A stretch of 20,000 bases of DNA from an uncultured virus (IMG/VR IMGVR_UViG_3300017940_000146) (Duplodnaviria > Heunggongvirae > Uroviricota > Caudoviricetes). A program made the translations under genes and the position numbers. The notes under the pieces were generated by a model that saw only the letters and a list, made by a program, of their open reading frames with translations, was not told the DNA's origin and did not search any database. Positions 12,793 through 20,000 of the stretch are shown piece by piece (within the stretch, counting starts at the first letter, position 1; each line of letters starts with the position of its first letter). The stretch lies in IMG/VR virus record IMGVR_UViG_3300017940_000146. The stretch is one strand, 5' to 3'.

Positions 12793-13385
12793 ATATAATG
12801 TGATTGAGACATTTTTTGTTTGGTTTCTTTTGAATGTTTAAATCCTAAATGACTTTTATTCCCCATAGCGGCCAAAGACATATTCTTTCTACTTTCTTGA
12901 GAATGTTTTCGTCCAACATTTCTTTTATTTCCAATTAAAGATTTTGAAATTTTTTTTCTTGTTTCTTTAGAACATTTTATTCCTTTATTCCAAGCCATTT
13001 GTAATCCTTTCTTTCCTTTATTCCAGGGAATTTTACCTTTATGTATTTCTGACATTTTTTGTTTTGTTTTTTCGGATATATGTCCCGAACCATCTCCACC
13101 AGGAGTCATATTATATCCGTTATGATAAGTATCATACTTCGCAATCATTTCAATTTCTAATTTCTTGGCTTCTTGTAGGGTCAGAATATTATTAATTAGG
13201 ACTTTATGAAGCCATTGATTTTCATTGGGGTATTTTAGGATTGCTTTATGAAATTTTCTTAATCCCCGCTTTGAATCATTTAGATGTATTTTCCATCTTT
13301 CTTCAATTGTTTTATACGTATATCCGATATAAGATTTTCCTGAAGGACTTGTATGTTTGTAAATGAGATAAATATTTTTAGACAT
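12756..13385 (-). CDS. GIY-YIG homing endonuclease with NUMOD3 repeats (Seg-like)
   Basis: IYLIY...YIGYT...ERW..H, E, GYNMTPGGDG, then repeated HSxExRKxMS and PWNKG motifs; start at ATG 13385 (MSKNIYLIY). Confidence 0.92.
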   Translation of the reverse strand: MSKNIYLIYKHTSPSGKSYIGYTYKTIEERWKIHLNDSKRGLRKFHKAILKYPNENQWLHKVLINNILTLQEAKKLEIEMIAKYDTYHNGYNMTPGGDGSGHISEKTKQKMSEIHKGKIPWNKGKKGLQMAWNKGIKCSKETRKKISKSLIGNKRNVGRKHSQESRKNMSLAAMGNKSHLGFKHSKETKQKMSQSHYIYLSRRPETVSK

Positions 13386-13387
13386 AT

Positions 13388-13415
13388 GCGATAGAACCTT
13401 TCTATTGCTTTGTTT
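13388..13415 (+). terminator. Hairpin with T-rich tail (possible intrinsic terminator; overlaps the HEG RBS on the opposite strand)
   Basis: GCGATAGAA-cct-TTCTATTGC followed by TTTGTTT. Confidence 0.5.
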
Positions 13416-13456
13416 AGGGACCATGTGGTGCTAATGACACTACTTGGTCCTATTAC

Positions 13457-13464
13457 TATTTATT
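13457..13464 (-). promoter_or_regulatory. T4-type late promoter for the GIY-YIG gene
   Basis: AATAAATA on the minus strand, mirror of the plus-strand late promoter. Confidence 0.5.
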
Positions 13465-13478
13465 GAATATTGAGAATT

Positions 13479-13486
13479 GATAAATA
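13479..13486 (+). promoter_or_regulatory. T4-type late promoter (GATAAATA)
   Basis: ATAAATA core about 30 nt upstream of AGGAG and ATG 13518. Confidence 0.7.
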
Positions 13487-13517
13487 GTAGTGTAATCATA
13501 GAAGTAGGAGAACTCTC

Positions 13518-14579
13518 ATGAAATTGGCACGAGATACAAATTTCGGGGATAGATTGGCAAATGAACATGTAATGGAGAACATTCATACCGCTCCATCTTA
13601 TTCATTTTCCCATTATTGCGAAATGAAGGAAAAAGAAAAACAGCACAAATATTTTCAAGATGAATTTAATTTATCTGAAGATCGGGAAGTGGTTTTCGGA
13701 ACTCATAATGGTTGTGATTATTGCGAAGGAACAGGTTGGTGCCCCGTATCTAAAGCTTGTATGGTTGAACCACTGCATTCACTTTGGGTACAAGCTGAAG
13801 TAGATACTCCTTCTGAAGATGGATACCATCTGGTTCAATGCCCAGTGTGTTGTCCATACAATGATGGAAGTAAAGATGTAAAAGATTCTCTTGATGAACA
13901 TATTGTTAAAAAAGGTTCTTCATTTGAATTAAAATCCAAAAAATCTGGAAAAAATCTTGGTACTTATCATTCTAAAGCTGGAGCCAAAAAGAGAGAGGCG
14001 CAGGTTGAATACTTTAAACACCTCAAAGAAGATGGTGGTGGGAATCCTTGGAAAACACATTGGGAACAAGCAATCCTTCCTGGTGCGCCTGATCGTGAAG
14101 GTGAAACTGATAAAGAAAAAAGGATTGAAGAAGCAAACCAACCATCTGATTATAACCGACAACAATCATCAGAAACAAAAGACCAAAAATCTCAAGAACA
14201 AAAAGCTTCTGGTCAAAAACAAAATGATAATCGGTTACAATATGAAAAGAAGAAAAAAGCTGCCGATAAAAAGAAAGCGGAAGAAAAAGAAAGAGAAACT
14301 AAAAAGCTTCTTCCTTATGAATTTACAAACCAAAAAGATGCTGAAAGAGCCGCTGGACATTTAGGCCTTAATGGATCTCATACGACTGGTAATGGAATTT
14401 ATAAACCAGGTTCTTCAGATATGTCATTACGTGATGCTGTAGCTCGTAAAAAAGCCAAACAACATATGCGAAGTGGATATCATGAAGAAAATAATAATAA
14501 CCCTCCACCTGCATATCCTTTAGATAAATTAGGTCTTCATGAAACTGTCCAATTAATTAAGGAATGTGTAAGACATTAA
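13518..14579 (+). CDS. Modular late protein (Cys-rich Zn module plus small basic modules), probable internal head protein
   Basis: AGGAG RBS; CDYCEGTGWC...CPVCC; HIVKKG...EYFKH module bounded by LDE and LKE; FTNQKDAERAA...YKPG module. Confidence 0.65.
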   Translation: MKLARDTNFGDRLANEHVMENIHTAPSYSFSHYCEMKEKEKQHKYFQDEFNLSEDREVVFGTHNGCDYCEGTGWCPVSKACMVEPLHSLWVQAEVDTPSEDGYHLVQCPVCCPYNDGSKDVKDSLDEHIVKKGSSFELKSKKSGKNLGTYHSKAGAKKREAQVEYFKHLKEDGGGNPWKTHWEQAILPGAPDREGETDKEKRIEEANQPSDYNRQQSSETKDQKSQEQKASGQKQNDNRLQYEKKKKAADKKKAEEKERETKKLLPYEFTNQKDAERAAGHLGLNGSHTTGNGIYKPGSSDMSLRDAVARKKAKQHMRSGYHEENNNNPPPAYPLDKLGLHETVQLIKECVRH

Positions 14580-15651: not shown

Positions 15652-17184
15652 ATGTCACTTTGGACAAAAACTAGCGCACCAAAATTTGCGCCACATGCAG
15701 TTCCAGGGATTGATGGTTGGGTACATCCCGTAACAAATGAAATATTAGAAACATTTGGATCATCAAATAAACCTTCACCAATAGCATCACCTGTTATAGA
15801 ATCCTGTGTTCTTTATAGAGCATTTATTGCGGCTTCTGGTGATGTATTACCAGATTTACGAACAAGTTTTCATACAGGAGATTATTTAACTTTTGCAGTA
15901 AGATTTGATGCACAAGTAACAGTAGTTCCGGATGTTGGTTCACCATATCTTGAAGTAACAATTAATGGTGTTGTAAGAAATGCTGTATATGTTCAAACGA
16001 GTTTTGGACTTAATACTGCTACATTATTATTTGTATATCAATTACAATCTTCCGATGCAGCTACACCAGGAAATATTAGTGTAGATAGTCAAATACATTT
16101 AAGTGGTCATATTTATAAACTTGGGACAACAACCCCAGTTACAATAACTGGAATTCCAAGAACACTTTTATTATCATTATCGGGTGTTCAAGGACATTTT
16201 GCTGTAAATAATGCTATGTCATGTGGTATTGGTTCTGCACAAGGATATGTTGTAGGTTATACACCATCTTCTTCAACTTCAGGTACACTTATTGTAGTTG
16301 AAACGGCAGGAACATTTTCAACTAGTGGAACTGCTGGTATTCAGGATATTACAACAAGTGCTAGTGGTATATTAAATGCAACAAATACACAATTATCTGA
16401 TATCACAATTTCATCAACAGTTCCAGGTAATTGTTCAGTGGCATTTGGGGCCTCTGCATATGATTTAGGTGCTCAAGTTGTTCTTACAGCCACATTTGAT
16501 CGTCCAATTACAGTAACAGGCACTCCTAATATTGTAATTAATGTTAATGGTTCTGCTCGGACTGCTGGTTATGCTTCTGGTTCTACAACCGATGCATTAG
16601 TATTTAATTATACTGTTGTATCTGGTGACCATGGATCTCCAGGAACAGTTTCATTAGTATCTCCAATTAATTTAAATGGTGGAACATTATTGGATGCTAG
16701 TAGTTTAGCACCTTCATTAACATTTACACAACCGGCAGGTATCGCTTCTCAAATTATTGATGGTTCTGTACCAACATTTGCAATAACACTTGAAGATGGT
16801 ATCCATTTTACAAATGGTGGAACATCTGGAACAGCCGGTATGGCTGCGGCTTCAGTTATTGCCACATTTAATAAACCAGTTACATTAATACTTGGTAGTG
16901 CAGGAACCACAGGTATTGAATTACAATTCCATTCTTCAAGTGGAACCGGTGCTGAAACCATACAAACTAGATTTGCAAGTGCTGGAACATCTGGTATCAG
17001 TAATACAACCATATTAACATTCAATTATACAATTACTGGTAGTGATAAAGCAACGGCTGGTGGAGTTGATGTTGTTTCACCAGTATTGTTACATGGTGGA
17101 GCATCAATTCTTGATGATGCTGGAAATGCTCCAACTTCATTAATATTTACTCCTCCTGCAACTACTAATGATTACGTAAATTAA
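15652..17184 (+). CDS. Virion structural protein with three Ig-like beta-sandwich repeats
   Basis: AAGGAG RBS; MSLW N-terminus; G/S/T-rich; repeated F[DN]xx[VI]T[VL]...A.Y.SG...L.F.Y..GD units at about 15868, 16459 and 16855. Confidence 0.72.
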   Translation: MSLWTKTSAPKFAPHAVPGIDGWVHPVTNEILETFGSSNKPSPIASPVIESCVLYRAFIAASGDVLPDLRTSFHTGDYLTFAVRFDAQVTVVPDVGSPYLEVTINGVVRNAVYVQTSFGLNTATLLFVYQLQSSDAATPGNISVDSQIHLSGHIYKLGTTTPVTITGIPRTLLLSLSGVQGHFAVNNAMSCGIGSAQGYVVGYTPSSSTSGTLIVVETAGTFSTSGTAGIQDITTSASGILNATNTQLSDITISSTVPGNCSVAFGASAYDLGAQVVLTATFDRPITVTGTPNIVINVNGSARTAGYASGSTTDALVFNYTVVSGDHGSPGTVSLVSPINLNGGTLLDASSLAPSLTFTQPAGIASQIIDGSVPTFAITLEDGIHFTNGGTSGTAGMAAASVIATFNKPVTLILGSAGTTGIELQFHSSSGTGAETIQTRFASAGTSGISNTTILTFNYTITGSDKATAGGVDVVSPVLLHGGASILDDAGNAPTSLIFTPPATTNDYVN

Positions 17185-17193
17185 GGGTGAAAT

Positions 17194-17712
17194 ATGAATT
17201 TAAATAAAAAATTCCAATCTTTTTTAAAAGAAGATAATACAAATCCTTCAATCCCGTCACCTGGCAATGTGGTGACGGGATTGAATACTTCTGAACAAGA
17301 AGCTTTATTACGGCATATTAATAGTGTATTGGTTGGCATTGCTGAAGCACCATCAATTAATCCATATTATCAATTAGATCGGGTAAGAGAACGTTTGAAA
17401 TTGGCATTAGGATTAACATTTGACGATGTTTGGTTTTTAAAAGAAGTTGGGTCATTTGAAAAAGTATTAGTTCCTCATAATAATTTAAATGCTGCTACTC
17501 CTGCATTTAGAACCACTAATGATCAAACAACAAGTCCAGGAGTTCATACACATGCGCCTGCTCCCGGTGGAGATGTAATTGATAATGGGTATTTAAATAA
17601 ATTTCCTCATGGGTTGGTACTTAAAGTCCAATATTTAAAAAGTAAAACATTATGGTATATAAATGTTGAAATTGTTCCGGCCCCCGATCTTCCTAAAGGA
17701 ACAATTGCTTAA
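17194..17712 (+). CDS. Hypothetical protein with capsid-targeting-like N-terminus
   Basis: AAGGGTG RBS; MNLNKKFQSFLKE. Confidence 0.7.
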   Translation: MNLNKKFQSFLKEDNTNPSIPSPGNVVTGLNTSEQEALLRHINSVLVGIAEAPSINPYYQLDRVRERLKLALGLTFDDVWFLKEVGSFEKVLVPHNNLNAATPAFRTTNDQTTSPGVHTHAPAPGGDVIDNGYLNKFPHGLVLKVQYLKSKTLWYINVEIVPAPDLPKGTIA

Positions 17713-18147: not shown

Positions 18148-18692
18148 AATATTATTTGATGCTCCAAATGATTAATTTACTTGTTAAACCCTGGACAGAA
18201 ATGCCAGCGTATAAGCTTGGTATAATTGATGCTCGTGGAAAAGTATTAAAGAAAACTCATCAATTAAAAACCGCTACTGAAAAAGTTGCATACGGAACAT
18301 TTCAAAAATTTTGTTTTAATTTACGACGTTTTATAGAATCTCTTCCTGGTGGGAAAACAAAATTAGCCAAATATTTAACAATTTATGCTTTATTCAAAGA
18401 ATCTGAAGATACGATGGATTCAATGTTTATAGAAGAATTTGGTAATATGAATATTAATGAAGCTTTTGAGGAAGATTTATTAATATCTAAAACAATTTTA
18501 TATAAAGGAATATATCGATTAATAAATGATATGTTGGATAATAAAGGTAAGATAGTTAAAAAAGGAAATTTTATAACTGTACCAATAGATCAAAAACCAC
18601 AAATGGTTTTATTTAATAAACCAATTTTTGAAGTAGAATATAAAAATCAAAAATTGTTAGTATCAACAGATGATATTTCGGATGATGTATGA
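18141..18692 (+). CDS. Conserved hypothetical protein of T4-like phages
   Basis: KPW...AYKLGIID..GK.LKK...EK.AY..F...FNLRR pattern. Confidence 0.72.
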   Translation: MLEYYLMLQMINLLVKPWTEMPAYKLGIIDARGKVLKKTHQLKTATEKVAYGTFQKFCFNLRRFIESLPGGKTKLAKYLTIYALFKESEDTMDSMFIEEFGNMNINEAFEEDLLISKTILYKGIYRLINDMLDNKGKIVKKGNFITVPIDQKPQMVLFNKPIFEVEYKNQKLLVSTDDISDDV

Positions 18693-18898
18693 AAAAATTT
18701 AAACAACTCAAAGAAGATATAGGACTTTCAACTGGGGCTGGAATGGCTATGTATGATCCAATGTTAGGTGGAACAAGACGCCAAGTAAAACCATGGAATG
18801 TTTATAAATCTTTAGGTGTTTGTGAAGAATGTATGCTTCCTATGCGTTTAAAGGAAGGTGAAATGACTTGCCCTGGATGTAATAAAATTTTAAAATAA
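18689..18898 (+). CDS. Small zinc-ribbon protein with capsid-targeting-like leader
   Basis: MKKFKQLKE leader; CEEC...CPGC; ATGA overlap with the upstream gene. Confidence 0.65.
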   Translation: MKKFKQLKEDIGLSTGAGMAMYDPMLGGTRRQVKPWNVYKSLGVCEECMLPMRLKEGEMTCPGCNKILK

Positions 18899-18901
18899 TA
18901 C

Positions 18902-18930
18902 TTGACATTCCATACAACATTTGATATAAT
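18902..18930 (+). promoter_or_regulatory. Consensus sigma70 promoter with extended -10
   Basis: TTGACA (18902-18907), 17-nt spacer, TGaTATAAT (-10 at 18925-18930). Confidence 0.88.
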
Positions 18931-18940
18931 AGAAGAATAA

Positions 18941-19079
18941 GGGCAGTTTAAAAAACAAGAGCTACGCTGCCTGCGTAGATTTCTGGTGAAATCAGACTTG
19001 GTCGTCAAGTTAAGCATTCTTTGGACCGTGTTGTTCGTATGGCTTTTATGCGGTTGATTTCTTAATTTTTGAACTGCCC
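18941..19079 (+). ncRNA. Putative structured RNA (cis-regulatory leader or sRNA) upstream of primase
   Basis: 14-bp closing helix 18941-18954/19066-19079 enclosing four candidate hairpins; several G-U pairs work only on the + strand. Confidence 0.6.
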
Positions 19080-19091
19080 CGCGAATTCTAA

Positions 19092-20000
19092 ATGTCTCTT
19101 TATATTGACCATAAATACGTTGCATTTATTTCTCCTCAATTAGAACGATTCAAACGTAAAAATCAAAAAACCTATAATTTTCGTTGTCCTATTTGTGGTG
19201 ATTCAGCTAAAAGTAAAATTAAAGCCCGTGGTTACTTTTATGTAAAAAATAATGATATATTTTTTTGTTGCCATAATTGTCATAAAAATTGGACATTAGG
19301 TCACTTCTTAAAAGAAATTGACCAAAATTTGTATGAACAATATACATTTGAAAAGTATAAGGATGTAAAAAAAGACCATGAAGATTTTTCAGAATTTAAA
19401 ACCACTACAGAATTTCATCAAATACCACATGACGAATCTGATTCTATTCTGGATAGTTACGATTGTATTGATAAGTTACCTTCCAATCATTTTGCTAAAG
19501 AATATCTCATTAAAAGGAAAATACCAGAATTTTTTTGGCGAAGCATATTCTTTATTCCAAATTTTAAGCAATTAGTAAACAAAATAGAACCAGAAAATGA
19601 ATATGGATTAAAAGAACAAGATCCAAGACTTGTTATTCCATTTTATAATAAAGAAAATAAACTTATTGCTTTCCAAGGTCGCTCATTTAATAAAACTGGA
19701 ATGCGATATATAACTATTAAAGTTGATAAAGAAGCTCCAAAAATTTATGGATTAGATAGGGTGAATTTAGATAAATGTGTTTACGTTGTTGAAGGACCTT
19801 TTGATTCTATGTTCCTTTCAAATGCAATAGCAACCGCAGGATCTAATTTGGCATCCAAAGAATTGGAATTTAAAGATAGTGTTTTTATTTTTGATAATGA
19901 AAAGAGATCAAAGGAAATAGTTAAACAAATGGAAAAAGTTATTAATGAAGGCAGAAAAATTTGTATCTGGCCAGATACAATTCAAGAAAAAGATATTAAC
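19092..20000 (+). CDS. 61: DNA primase (T4 gp61-like), 3'-truncated by the window edge
   Basis: Not in the ORF track because it has no stop in the window. MSLYIDHKYV...NFRCPICGDS...ARGY...CHNC zinc finger, RLVIPF, FQGR, TOPRIM VEGPFDSMFL, FDNE. Confidence 0.96.
   Translation, partial: MSLYIDHKYVAFISPQLERFKRKNQKTYNFRCPICGDSAKSKIKARGYFYVKNNDIFFCCHNCHKNWTLGHFLKEIDQNLYEQYTFEKYKDVKKDHEDFSEFKTTTEFHQIPHDESDSILDSYDCIDKLPSNHFAKEYLIKRKIPEFFWRSIFFIPNFKQLVNKIEPENEYGLKEQDPRLVIPFYNKENKLIAFQGRSFNKTGMRYITIKVDKEAPKIYGLDRVNLDKCVYVVEGPFDSMFLSNAIATAGSNLASKELEFKDSVFIFDNEKRSKEIVKQMEKVINEGRKICIWPDTIQEKDIN

Follow-up and report, generated by a model that had tools for sequence, protein, structure and literature searches.

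A structured insert between an early promoter and the primase gene of an uncultured T4-like peat virus, with a closing helix that may be under selection

Introduction

Stem-loops at the 5' terminus of bacterial mRNAs, of the type found in the ompA leader, are reported to stabilise the transcripts that carry them, the work being attributed to Emory, Bouvet and Belasco in 1992. Phage early transcripts, for example those of T7, also carry processing signals for RNase III, which consist of approximately two turns of duplex with an internal loop.

Stem-loops in 5' leaders, and the presence or absence of a leader, are listed among the features that protect bacterial mRNAs from RNases (PMC7509114). 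T4-like phages contain composite terminator/promoter cassettes known as PeSLs (PMC4122927; PMC2839356), and the former source describes recombination-prone borders for promoter/terminator cassettes in these phages, similar to the border considered here. Finally, the transcribed hairpin of the Correia elements of Neisseria can be bound or cut by RNase III, with altered expression as the outcome (PMC2649163).

The element described here lies directly before the primase gene of an uncultured virus (IMG/VR IMGVR_UViG_3300017940_000146). The window, ie the whole stretch of 20,000 nucleotides that was analysed, is the minus strand of G000:C1:29373-49372.

Results

The locus and its setting

The virus is a T4-like phage from peat soil. 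Its record is 101.6 kb long and estimated to be 56% complete, and its DNA was found in 20 peat, wetland or soil sequencing runs, with no RNA run among those listed. The nearest isolates by primase are the Pelagibacter myophages Mosig and HTVC008M, at approximately 44% identity. Seventeen tRNA genes and one permuted tmRNA gene are present in the genome, all on the strand of the element; together they point to an alphaproteobacterial host. The tmRNA gene (L134:13921-14239 (-), on G000:C1 but outside the window) is of the permuted two-piece, alphaproteobacterial type and scores 114 bits against RF04321 and 66.7 bits against RF01849. Five positions of the window (3175, 14349, 15531, 16119 and 16134) are not as in the genome record.

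The features of the primase leader are collected in Table 1. The primase gene comprises 336 codons in the genome, of which the first 303 are inside the window. From the promoter, the transcript is predicted to start near 18937. Over the whole genome approximately 20 near-consensus early promoters of the form TTGACA-17-TGnTATAAT were found on the element's strand. Most early promoters of the genome have an ATG about 6-30 nt downstream, and for this reason the 161-nt primase leader is unusual for the virus. At many of them the ATG is just 6-17 nt past the -10 box, a layout which suggests that the early mRNAs of the virus may be leaderless or near-leaderless.

No credible open reading frame was found in the 161 nt between the promoter and the primase. 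An antisense ORF of 107 aa (18802-19125) was rejected as a gene, having no PHROG match and overlapping both neighbouring genes, and an 8-codon ORF at 19039-19065, considered as a leader peptide, was read instead as a relic gene end.

Table 1. Features in and around the primase leader (positions in the window; pair probabilities refer to the predicted transcript).
Feature	Position	Strand	Remarks
Upstream 69-aa ORF	18689..18898	+	CxxC...CxxC; stops 3 nt before the promoter; no PHROG match
Sigma-70-type early promoter	18902..18930	+	TTGACA, 17 nt, TG-extended TATAAT; 12/12 matches
Closing helix P1, 5' arm GGGCAGTTTAAAAA	18941..18954	+	14 bp; pair probability 0.87-1.0; compensatory changes relative to L143
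Helix extension P1b, 5' arm AAGAG	18957..18961	+	pairs with UUCUU 19059-19063; probability 0.49-0.84
Hairpin 1, CTACGC/GCGTAG	18962..18978	+	probability 0.48-0.99; terminator-like with weak T tail in a pattern scan
Hairpin 2, GATTTC/GAAATC	18978..18993	+	probability 0.52-0.68
Hairpin 3, GACTTG/CAAGTT	18995..19011	+	probability 0.55-0.66
Hairpin 4, GACCGTGT/ATGCGGTT	19024..19055	+	weak; probability 0.34-0.44
Segment like the 3' end of the phrog_459 gene	19044..19083	+	last codons, stop, terminator-like hairpin; putative relic frame ends in TAA 19063-19065
Closing helix P1, 3' arm TTTTTGAACTGCCC	19066..19079	+	pairs with 18941..18954
Spacer CGCGAATTCTAA	19080..19091	+	12 nt, single-stranded, no Shine-Dalgarno; CGCG common to L143
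DNA primase (gp61-like)	19092..20000	+	phrog_47, 1e-71

Predicted fold of the element

The core element (18941-19079) is 139 nt long and ends 12 nt before the primase ATG. The minimum free energy (MFE) of the region 18930-19094 on the + strand is -50.9 kcal/mol (z -4.31), a value equalled by none of 200 dinucleotide shuffles. The - strand RNA of the same region also far surpasses its own shuffles (z -4.22). For the element alone the + strand is favoured by 10 kcal/mol (-46.3 versus -36.3), and 6 of its 45 pairs are G-U, against 2 of 41 on the - strand. As DNA, the element has folding energies of -24.7 (+ strand) and -20.8 kcal/mol (- strand). Pair probabilities were computed on the predicted transcript 18937-19115, and in this model hardly any doubt attaches to the closing helix or to hairpin 1, support for hairpins 2 and 3 is moderate and hairpin 4 is weak. 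The closing helix and its extension amount to approximately 19 bp (14 + 5), broken by a small internal loop. The primase AUG and the 12 nt preceding it are unpaired in the MFE structure.

Much of this had been described in an earlier note on this DNA, and all the coordinates and strings that it quoted are present in the sequence. The consensus promoter that it reported matches at 12 of 12 positions, the noncoding stretch that it called GC-richer than its flanks has a G+C content of 42.4% over the element (window 31.7%, genome 31.4%), and the primase ATG does lie 12 nt past the closing helix with no GGAG-like Shine-Dalgarno before it. All its listed helices are contained in the MFE structure, the comparison with shuffles that it proposed came out in favour of a fold, and the bias of G-U pairs that it took to favour a + strand RNA was borne out by both the pair counts and the energies. 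Its suggestion of mutually exclusive folds fared less well, the alternative 7-bp pairing GAAAUCA/UGAUUUC having a probability of just 0.12-0.15.

When the MFE of 150-nt windows was regressed on G+C over the whole genome, the element ranked 37th of approximately 4060 (z -2.59). Exact inverted repeats of at least 11 bp with 20-220 nt spacing number 24 in the genome, and 9-26 across 20 shuffled versions. The element is clearly structured, but strong hairpins are numerous in this genome and it does not stand out among them.

Known RNA families and terminators

The note had not recognised a tRNA or another known family here, and the searches agree. Rfam 15 at the gathering threshold gave no match in the whole window. 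With the limit relaxed to E = 10, the region 18800-19200 gave a sole match, to GP20-a, on the - strand and outside the element (14.9 bits against a threshold of 47.2). ARAGORN found no tRNA in the window. An intrinsic terminator, taken as a G+C-rich hairpin directly followed by a T run, was not found at the closing helix, which is followed by CGCGAATTCT; only hairpin 1 was flagged as terminator-like.

Other structured sites in the genome

A second consensus early promoter with a hairpin behind it was seen outside the window, at L134:11754-11904 (-). Between promoter and hairpin there are 11 nt; the hairpin is closed by 10 bp, is G+C-rich inside and is approximately 100 nt before the gene for the gp32 single-strand DNA-binding protein (PF08804, 8.8e-44). 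Taken whole, the 117-nt gp32 leader showed no more structure than its shuffled versions (z -0.19). Once G+C is corrected for, no 150-nt stretch of the genome is more structured than one in the window at 13300-13529 (z -4.3), where there are three adjacent strong hairpins, one of them a 15-bp A+T-rich helix. A further site in the window, 17139-17399, has a 15-bp G+C-rich hairpin (AATCCCGTCACC...GGTGACGGGATT) within the first codons of the ORF 17194-17712, just past a 510-aa repeat-rich structural gene.

Occurrence in relatives

A search of the viral_contigs collection with the primase gave 18 loci, 16 of which include the upstream region. One of the 16, L001, is the same virus and identical; the element is absent from all of the other 15 IMG/VR relatives (26-57% identity). 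A scan of metagenomes gave 22 loci, 19 with the upstream region, several of which are the same contigs as the IMG/VR loci. An element is present in two of these 19. One, L142, is the same virus; the other, L143, is a different virus, whose primase is 57% identical to that of the window. The remaining 17 have none. The element is also absent from the Pelagibacter phages Mosig and HTVC008M, where promoter-like hexamers are found 10 and 11 nt before the ATG. The relative L003 (57% identity) is as close to the window as L143 is and has no element; its -10 box is 11 nt before the ATG. In general the ATG of the relatives follows the promoter by 10-14 nt, or comes after a short leader without structure. 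Going by the absence of the element from relatives, and by the mostly short leaders of this genome, the ancestral state was probably one without it. Because L003 lacks it, the element is dispensable.

Three of the relatives (L007, L008 and L009) have a 13-bp hairpin followed by a T run some 60 nt ahead of the primase start, at locus positions 1440-1500, and its loop contains the -10 box of the primase promoter. This arrangement is a terminator/promoter composite of the PeSL kind.

The closing helix in L143

The leader of L143 consists of TGATATAAT, 8 nt, a 61-nt hairpin (L143 1427-1487) and 13 nt, and the primase then starts with TTG, preceded by GGAG. The predicted fold of its element (-33.1 kcal/mol, z -4.88) is closed by a helix of 17 bp, inside which are an internal loop and a single 6-bp hairpin, and a search against Rfam gave weak chance matches only.

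The arms were registered from the base of the helix by a script. (A MAFFT alignment of the window, L142 and L143 put the arms out of register and was left out of the counts.) In this comparison 8 of 14 arm positions differ between the two elements, yet pairing is perfect in both: of the 14 pairs of the window's helix, 6 are unchanged in L143, 1 has changed on one side and 7 on both sides, and none is broken. Three further features are common to the two: the helix has a GGG/CCC base, CGCG follows it, and a TAA stands just ahead of the 3' arm. The distance from the helix to the start codon is also similar, at 12 nt in the window and 13 nt in L143. The interiors are unrelated and cannot be aligned. 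Since the primases are only 57% identical, a helix without constraint should have decayed. Our main argument is accordingly that the pairing of the closing helix is selected and the inner hairpins are not, because L143 keeps the pairs with changed bases but has an unrelated interior. The covariation amounts to one pairwise comparison, as just two lineages carry the element, and two independent palindromic insertions would give the same picture. Conservation in relatives, on which the earlier note had made its proposal depend, is found for the closing helix and its flanks, in two lineages only, and does not extend to the interior hairpins, which L143 lacks.

Variation in the population

In three of four sequencing runs there is a second allele: two 112-nt contigs cover 18969-19080, one of them identical to the window and the other with three SNPs (T>C 18999, A>G 19025 and G>A 19050), linked within 52 nt. 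The window's DNA may itself come from these runs, and the two are not independent. The change at 18999 breaks a U-A pair of hairpin 3; in hairpin 4 pairing survives the other two changes, A-U becoming G-U at 19025 and U-G becoming U-A at 19050. The second allele has a predicted energy of -47.0 kcal/mol, compared with -46.3 for the window, with the 3' part of the interior folded differently.

L142 differs from the genome at 4 of 3909 nt, and three of the differences fall within the leader, namely one added A (18932), one added T (18946), which would form a bulge in the 5' arm, and the same T>C at 18999. The bulge means that the closing helix is not immutable. Altogether 5 of the 6 variant sites seen fall in the 161-nt leader (18931-19091), for which the Poisson probability is approximately 6e-6, a rough figure as it is pooled from two data sets. 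Such clustering points to relaxed constraint or to a tract of recombination within the interior; the linked SNPs are as would be expected of a tract received from a diverged strain.

Origin of the insert

The 3' part of the element resembles the end of another gene of the same virus. Over positions 19044-19068, 23 of 25 nt match the final codons, stop codon included, of a 734-aa gene (phrog_459, annotated as a peptidase; E 9e-5). When the element was shuffled by dinucleotides and compared with the whole genome as a control, 4 of 400 versions scored as high as this 25-nt match. The likeness runs on over the 3' arm as far as CCGCG, and there are only these two places in the genome where GATTTCTTAATTTT is followed by CCGCG within 12 nt. 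At the phrog_459 locus the segment is a weak hairpin, followed by a T run and then by another early promoter, and that gene end is a PeSL-like terminator/promoter composite. The putative relic frame in the element ends ...DRVVRMAFMRLIS-stop and the phrog_459 protein ends ...QRVVLTRFIRMIS-stop, its homologues in two of the relatives' records, G002 and G003, ending NRTVLNRFIGMIA and NRVVLNRFINLIA. By tblastn alone the match between the relic frame and the phrog_459 C-terminus is not significant (E = 1, third-best match in the genome).

We read the 3' part of the element as a probable relic of a gene end and terminator hairpin, brought in by recombination. The border is a recombination-prone one, because the genes upstream of the primase differ between this virus and its relatives.

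Searches for further copies

No second full copy of the element was found in the 101.6-kb genome, and as DNA it gave only chance matches of 16-18 nt in the relatives' records G001-G003. In a DNA similarity search of the phage collection only the primase coding part matched, those to the element being chance matches. A pattern of the helix ends with any interior gave at least 113 stretches in viral_contigs; among the matches listed, all were chance or belonged to an unrelated coding family of 120 nt, and none had an interior like that of the element. A tighter pattern of the arms recovered only the same virus from viral_contigs and nothing from genome_contigs (185,579 species genomes). The promoter combined with the start of the helix gave 19 stretches, with the helix present in the same virus only, and a pattern of the 3' segment gave nine, six from the same virus and three by chance. 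Protein-guided searches with the upstream 183-aa protein and with the L143 primase yielded no new lineages. On the evidence of these searches the element appears not to be a family.

Discussion

The preferred explanation

The explanation that we put first, tentatively, is a lineage-specific leader insert whose long closing helix would be under selection in the + strand RNA, where it would act to stabilise the 5' end or to direct processing. The early promoter is 10-14 nt before the ATG in relatives, and in this virus and one relative extra sequence would have been inserted between the two, some of it at least taken by recombination from the end of a gene with a terminator. Selection would keep a helix of 14-17 bp with a GGG/CCC base, while the interior, looped out, would be free to vary. 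Such a helix would begin approximately 1-4 nt past the predicted transcript start and end 12-13 nt before the start codon. Its most likely action would be that of a 5'-terminal stem-loop which shields the mRNA from 5'-end-dependent decay, and its position 10 nt past the -10 box, or 8 nt in L143, would fit the spacing of a stabilising stem-loop of that type. It may also serve as a double-stranded processing site, the start codon being left in a short open stretch; the length of the duplex (14 + 5 bp here and 17 + 6 bp in L143) would be compatible with an RNase III site. The RNA is presumably made, and presumably has a stabilising or processing effect. Against this reading, only two lineages carry an element, L003 does without one, the leader variants are as under relaxed constraint and, after correction for G+C, the fold ranks no higher than 37th among the windows of the genome.

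If the helix is functional, a near-leaderless T4-like phage has absorbed a recombination scar by closing it into a hairpin, which may in addition protect the primase mRNA, and the leader becomes a simple, testable case of selection on structure only in a phage. It opens no new class of regulatory RNA, and the evidence comes from two lineages of uncultured peat viruses.

Alternative explanations

The main rival is that the element is a non-functional relic or a selfish palindromic insertion, ie that illegitimate or promoter/terminator-cassette recombination deposited part of a gene end behind the promoter, or that a small element with inverted repeats inserted itself at that place, and that the sequence is tolerated there, with the helix kept by DNA-level processes or by its recent origin. 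We consider this rather unlikely, but it is still a strong rival, since L003 does without the element and the population varies in it. Its presence or absence among equally close relatives is what a tolerated insertion would give, as are the copy of another gene's 3' end with its terminator-like hairpin, the relic frame RVVxxxFxRxIS-stop, which is like the phrog_459 C-terminus, the concentration of variants in the element and the lack of conservation of its interior. By eye, there is also a direct repeat, AGATAT, on both sides of the L143 element; the window has only GAAT, within the palindromic GAATTC. Against it, the match to the protein C-terminus is not significant alone, and the copies with the same terminal inverted repeats that a MITE-like element would leave were not found: there is one full copy in the genome, none in the G001-G003 records and none in the 185,579 species genomes, and in the viral_contigs collection the arms occur in the same virus only. 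Arms that differ at 8 of 14 positions and still pair perfectly fit neither a terminal repeat recognised by a transposase nor neutral decay, and all the G-T pairs fall such that they are G-U on the + strand.

A processed small RNA seems improbable. A strong promoter would here yield a stable RNA of approximately 140 nt, cut at the long helix and acting in trans. The consensus promoter does precede the element, the virus already encodes many stable RNAs on the same strand (the tRNA and tmRNA genes), and the interrupted duplex is long in both lineages. However, there is no terminator past the helix, the interior, which would hold the trans-acting sequence, is not conserved in L143, and Rfam has no match.

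We give still less credence to the idea that the conserved GGG/CCC-CGCG base of the helix is the recognition platform of an undescribed post-transcriptional control of primase, where a double-strand RNA-binding factor of the phage or the host would set primase dosage and the variable interior would be a rapidly evolving module that tunes or evades it.

A riboswitch, or a switch of primase that senses a ligand, protein or temperature through mutually exclusive folds, we rate as very unlikely. Aptamers in 5' leaders do usually have this layout, a multi-branch junction enclosed by a closing helix, and the 7-bp alternative pairing exists. Neither the junction nor the hairpins are present in L143, though, and the other relatives have no element at all; a natural allele refolds the 3' half at equal energy; and with the AUG and the 12 nt before it unpaired and no terminator, no expression platform is visible. 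A switch is not supported, because the junction is unconserved, an expression platform is missing, the alternative fold has a low probability and no Rfam riboswitch matches up to E = 10. The earlier note had proposed a cis-regulatory leader or switch: the multi-branched fold in a noncoding leader, biased to the + strand, stands, and the conserved regulatory RNA or switch is not supported, given the interior missing from L143, the refolded allele, the improbable alternative pairing, a start codon outside the structure and the lack of a terminator.

A DNA-level signal, such as a cruciform or single-strand hairpin for replication initiation, recombination or protein binding near the primase, is likewise highly improbable: the inverted repeat does fold as DNA and its - strand RNA also beats shuffles, but the G-T pairs favour one strand, repeats of this length are barely commoner in the A+T-rich genome than in its shuffles, and nothing ties the site to replication.

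Comparison with known systems

The element resembles the Correia elements in being a small element bounded by inverted repeats beside a gene. It is unlike them in copy number and sequence, since Correia elements are multi-copy with conserved repeats, whereas here there is a single copy with arms that differ from those of its sole homologue. There is also a likeness to PeSLs: an early sigma-70-type promoter and a stem-loop are found in a T4-like phage, at a border where the neighbouring genes vary between relatives, and the terminator-like hairpin of which the 3' part of the element is a copy directly precedes another early promoter. A PeSL proper is a terminator followed by an early promoter, repeated at cassette borders. 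The primase leader is not one: it has the promoter first and then the stem-loop, its helix is without a T run and its motif is not repeated in the genome.

Riboswitch aptamers share with the element a closing helix and a multi-branch junction in a 5' leader, but here there is no conserved junction, expression platform or Rfam match. The RNase III sites of T7 are similar in having approximately two turns of duplex with an internal loop, on a phage early transcript and just ahead of a gene; the differences are that the duplex here is 14 + 5 bp and that it is in a 5' leader, not between cistrons. The stem-loop of the ompA type differs in that the helix here encloses a branched interior of 110 nt and that the 5' end is a predicted one. 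The two agree in a stable helix a few nucleotides from the (here predicted) 5' end, with a sequence that is free to change as long as it is paired. In kind, the element is a known one, a 5' leader hairpin, of recombinational origin.
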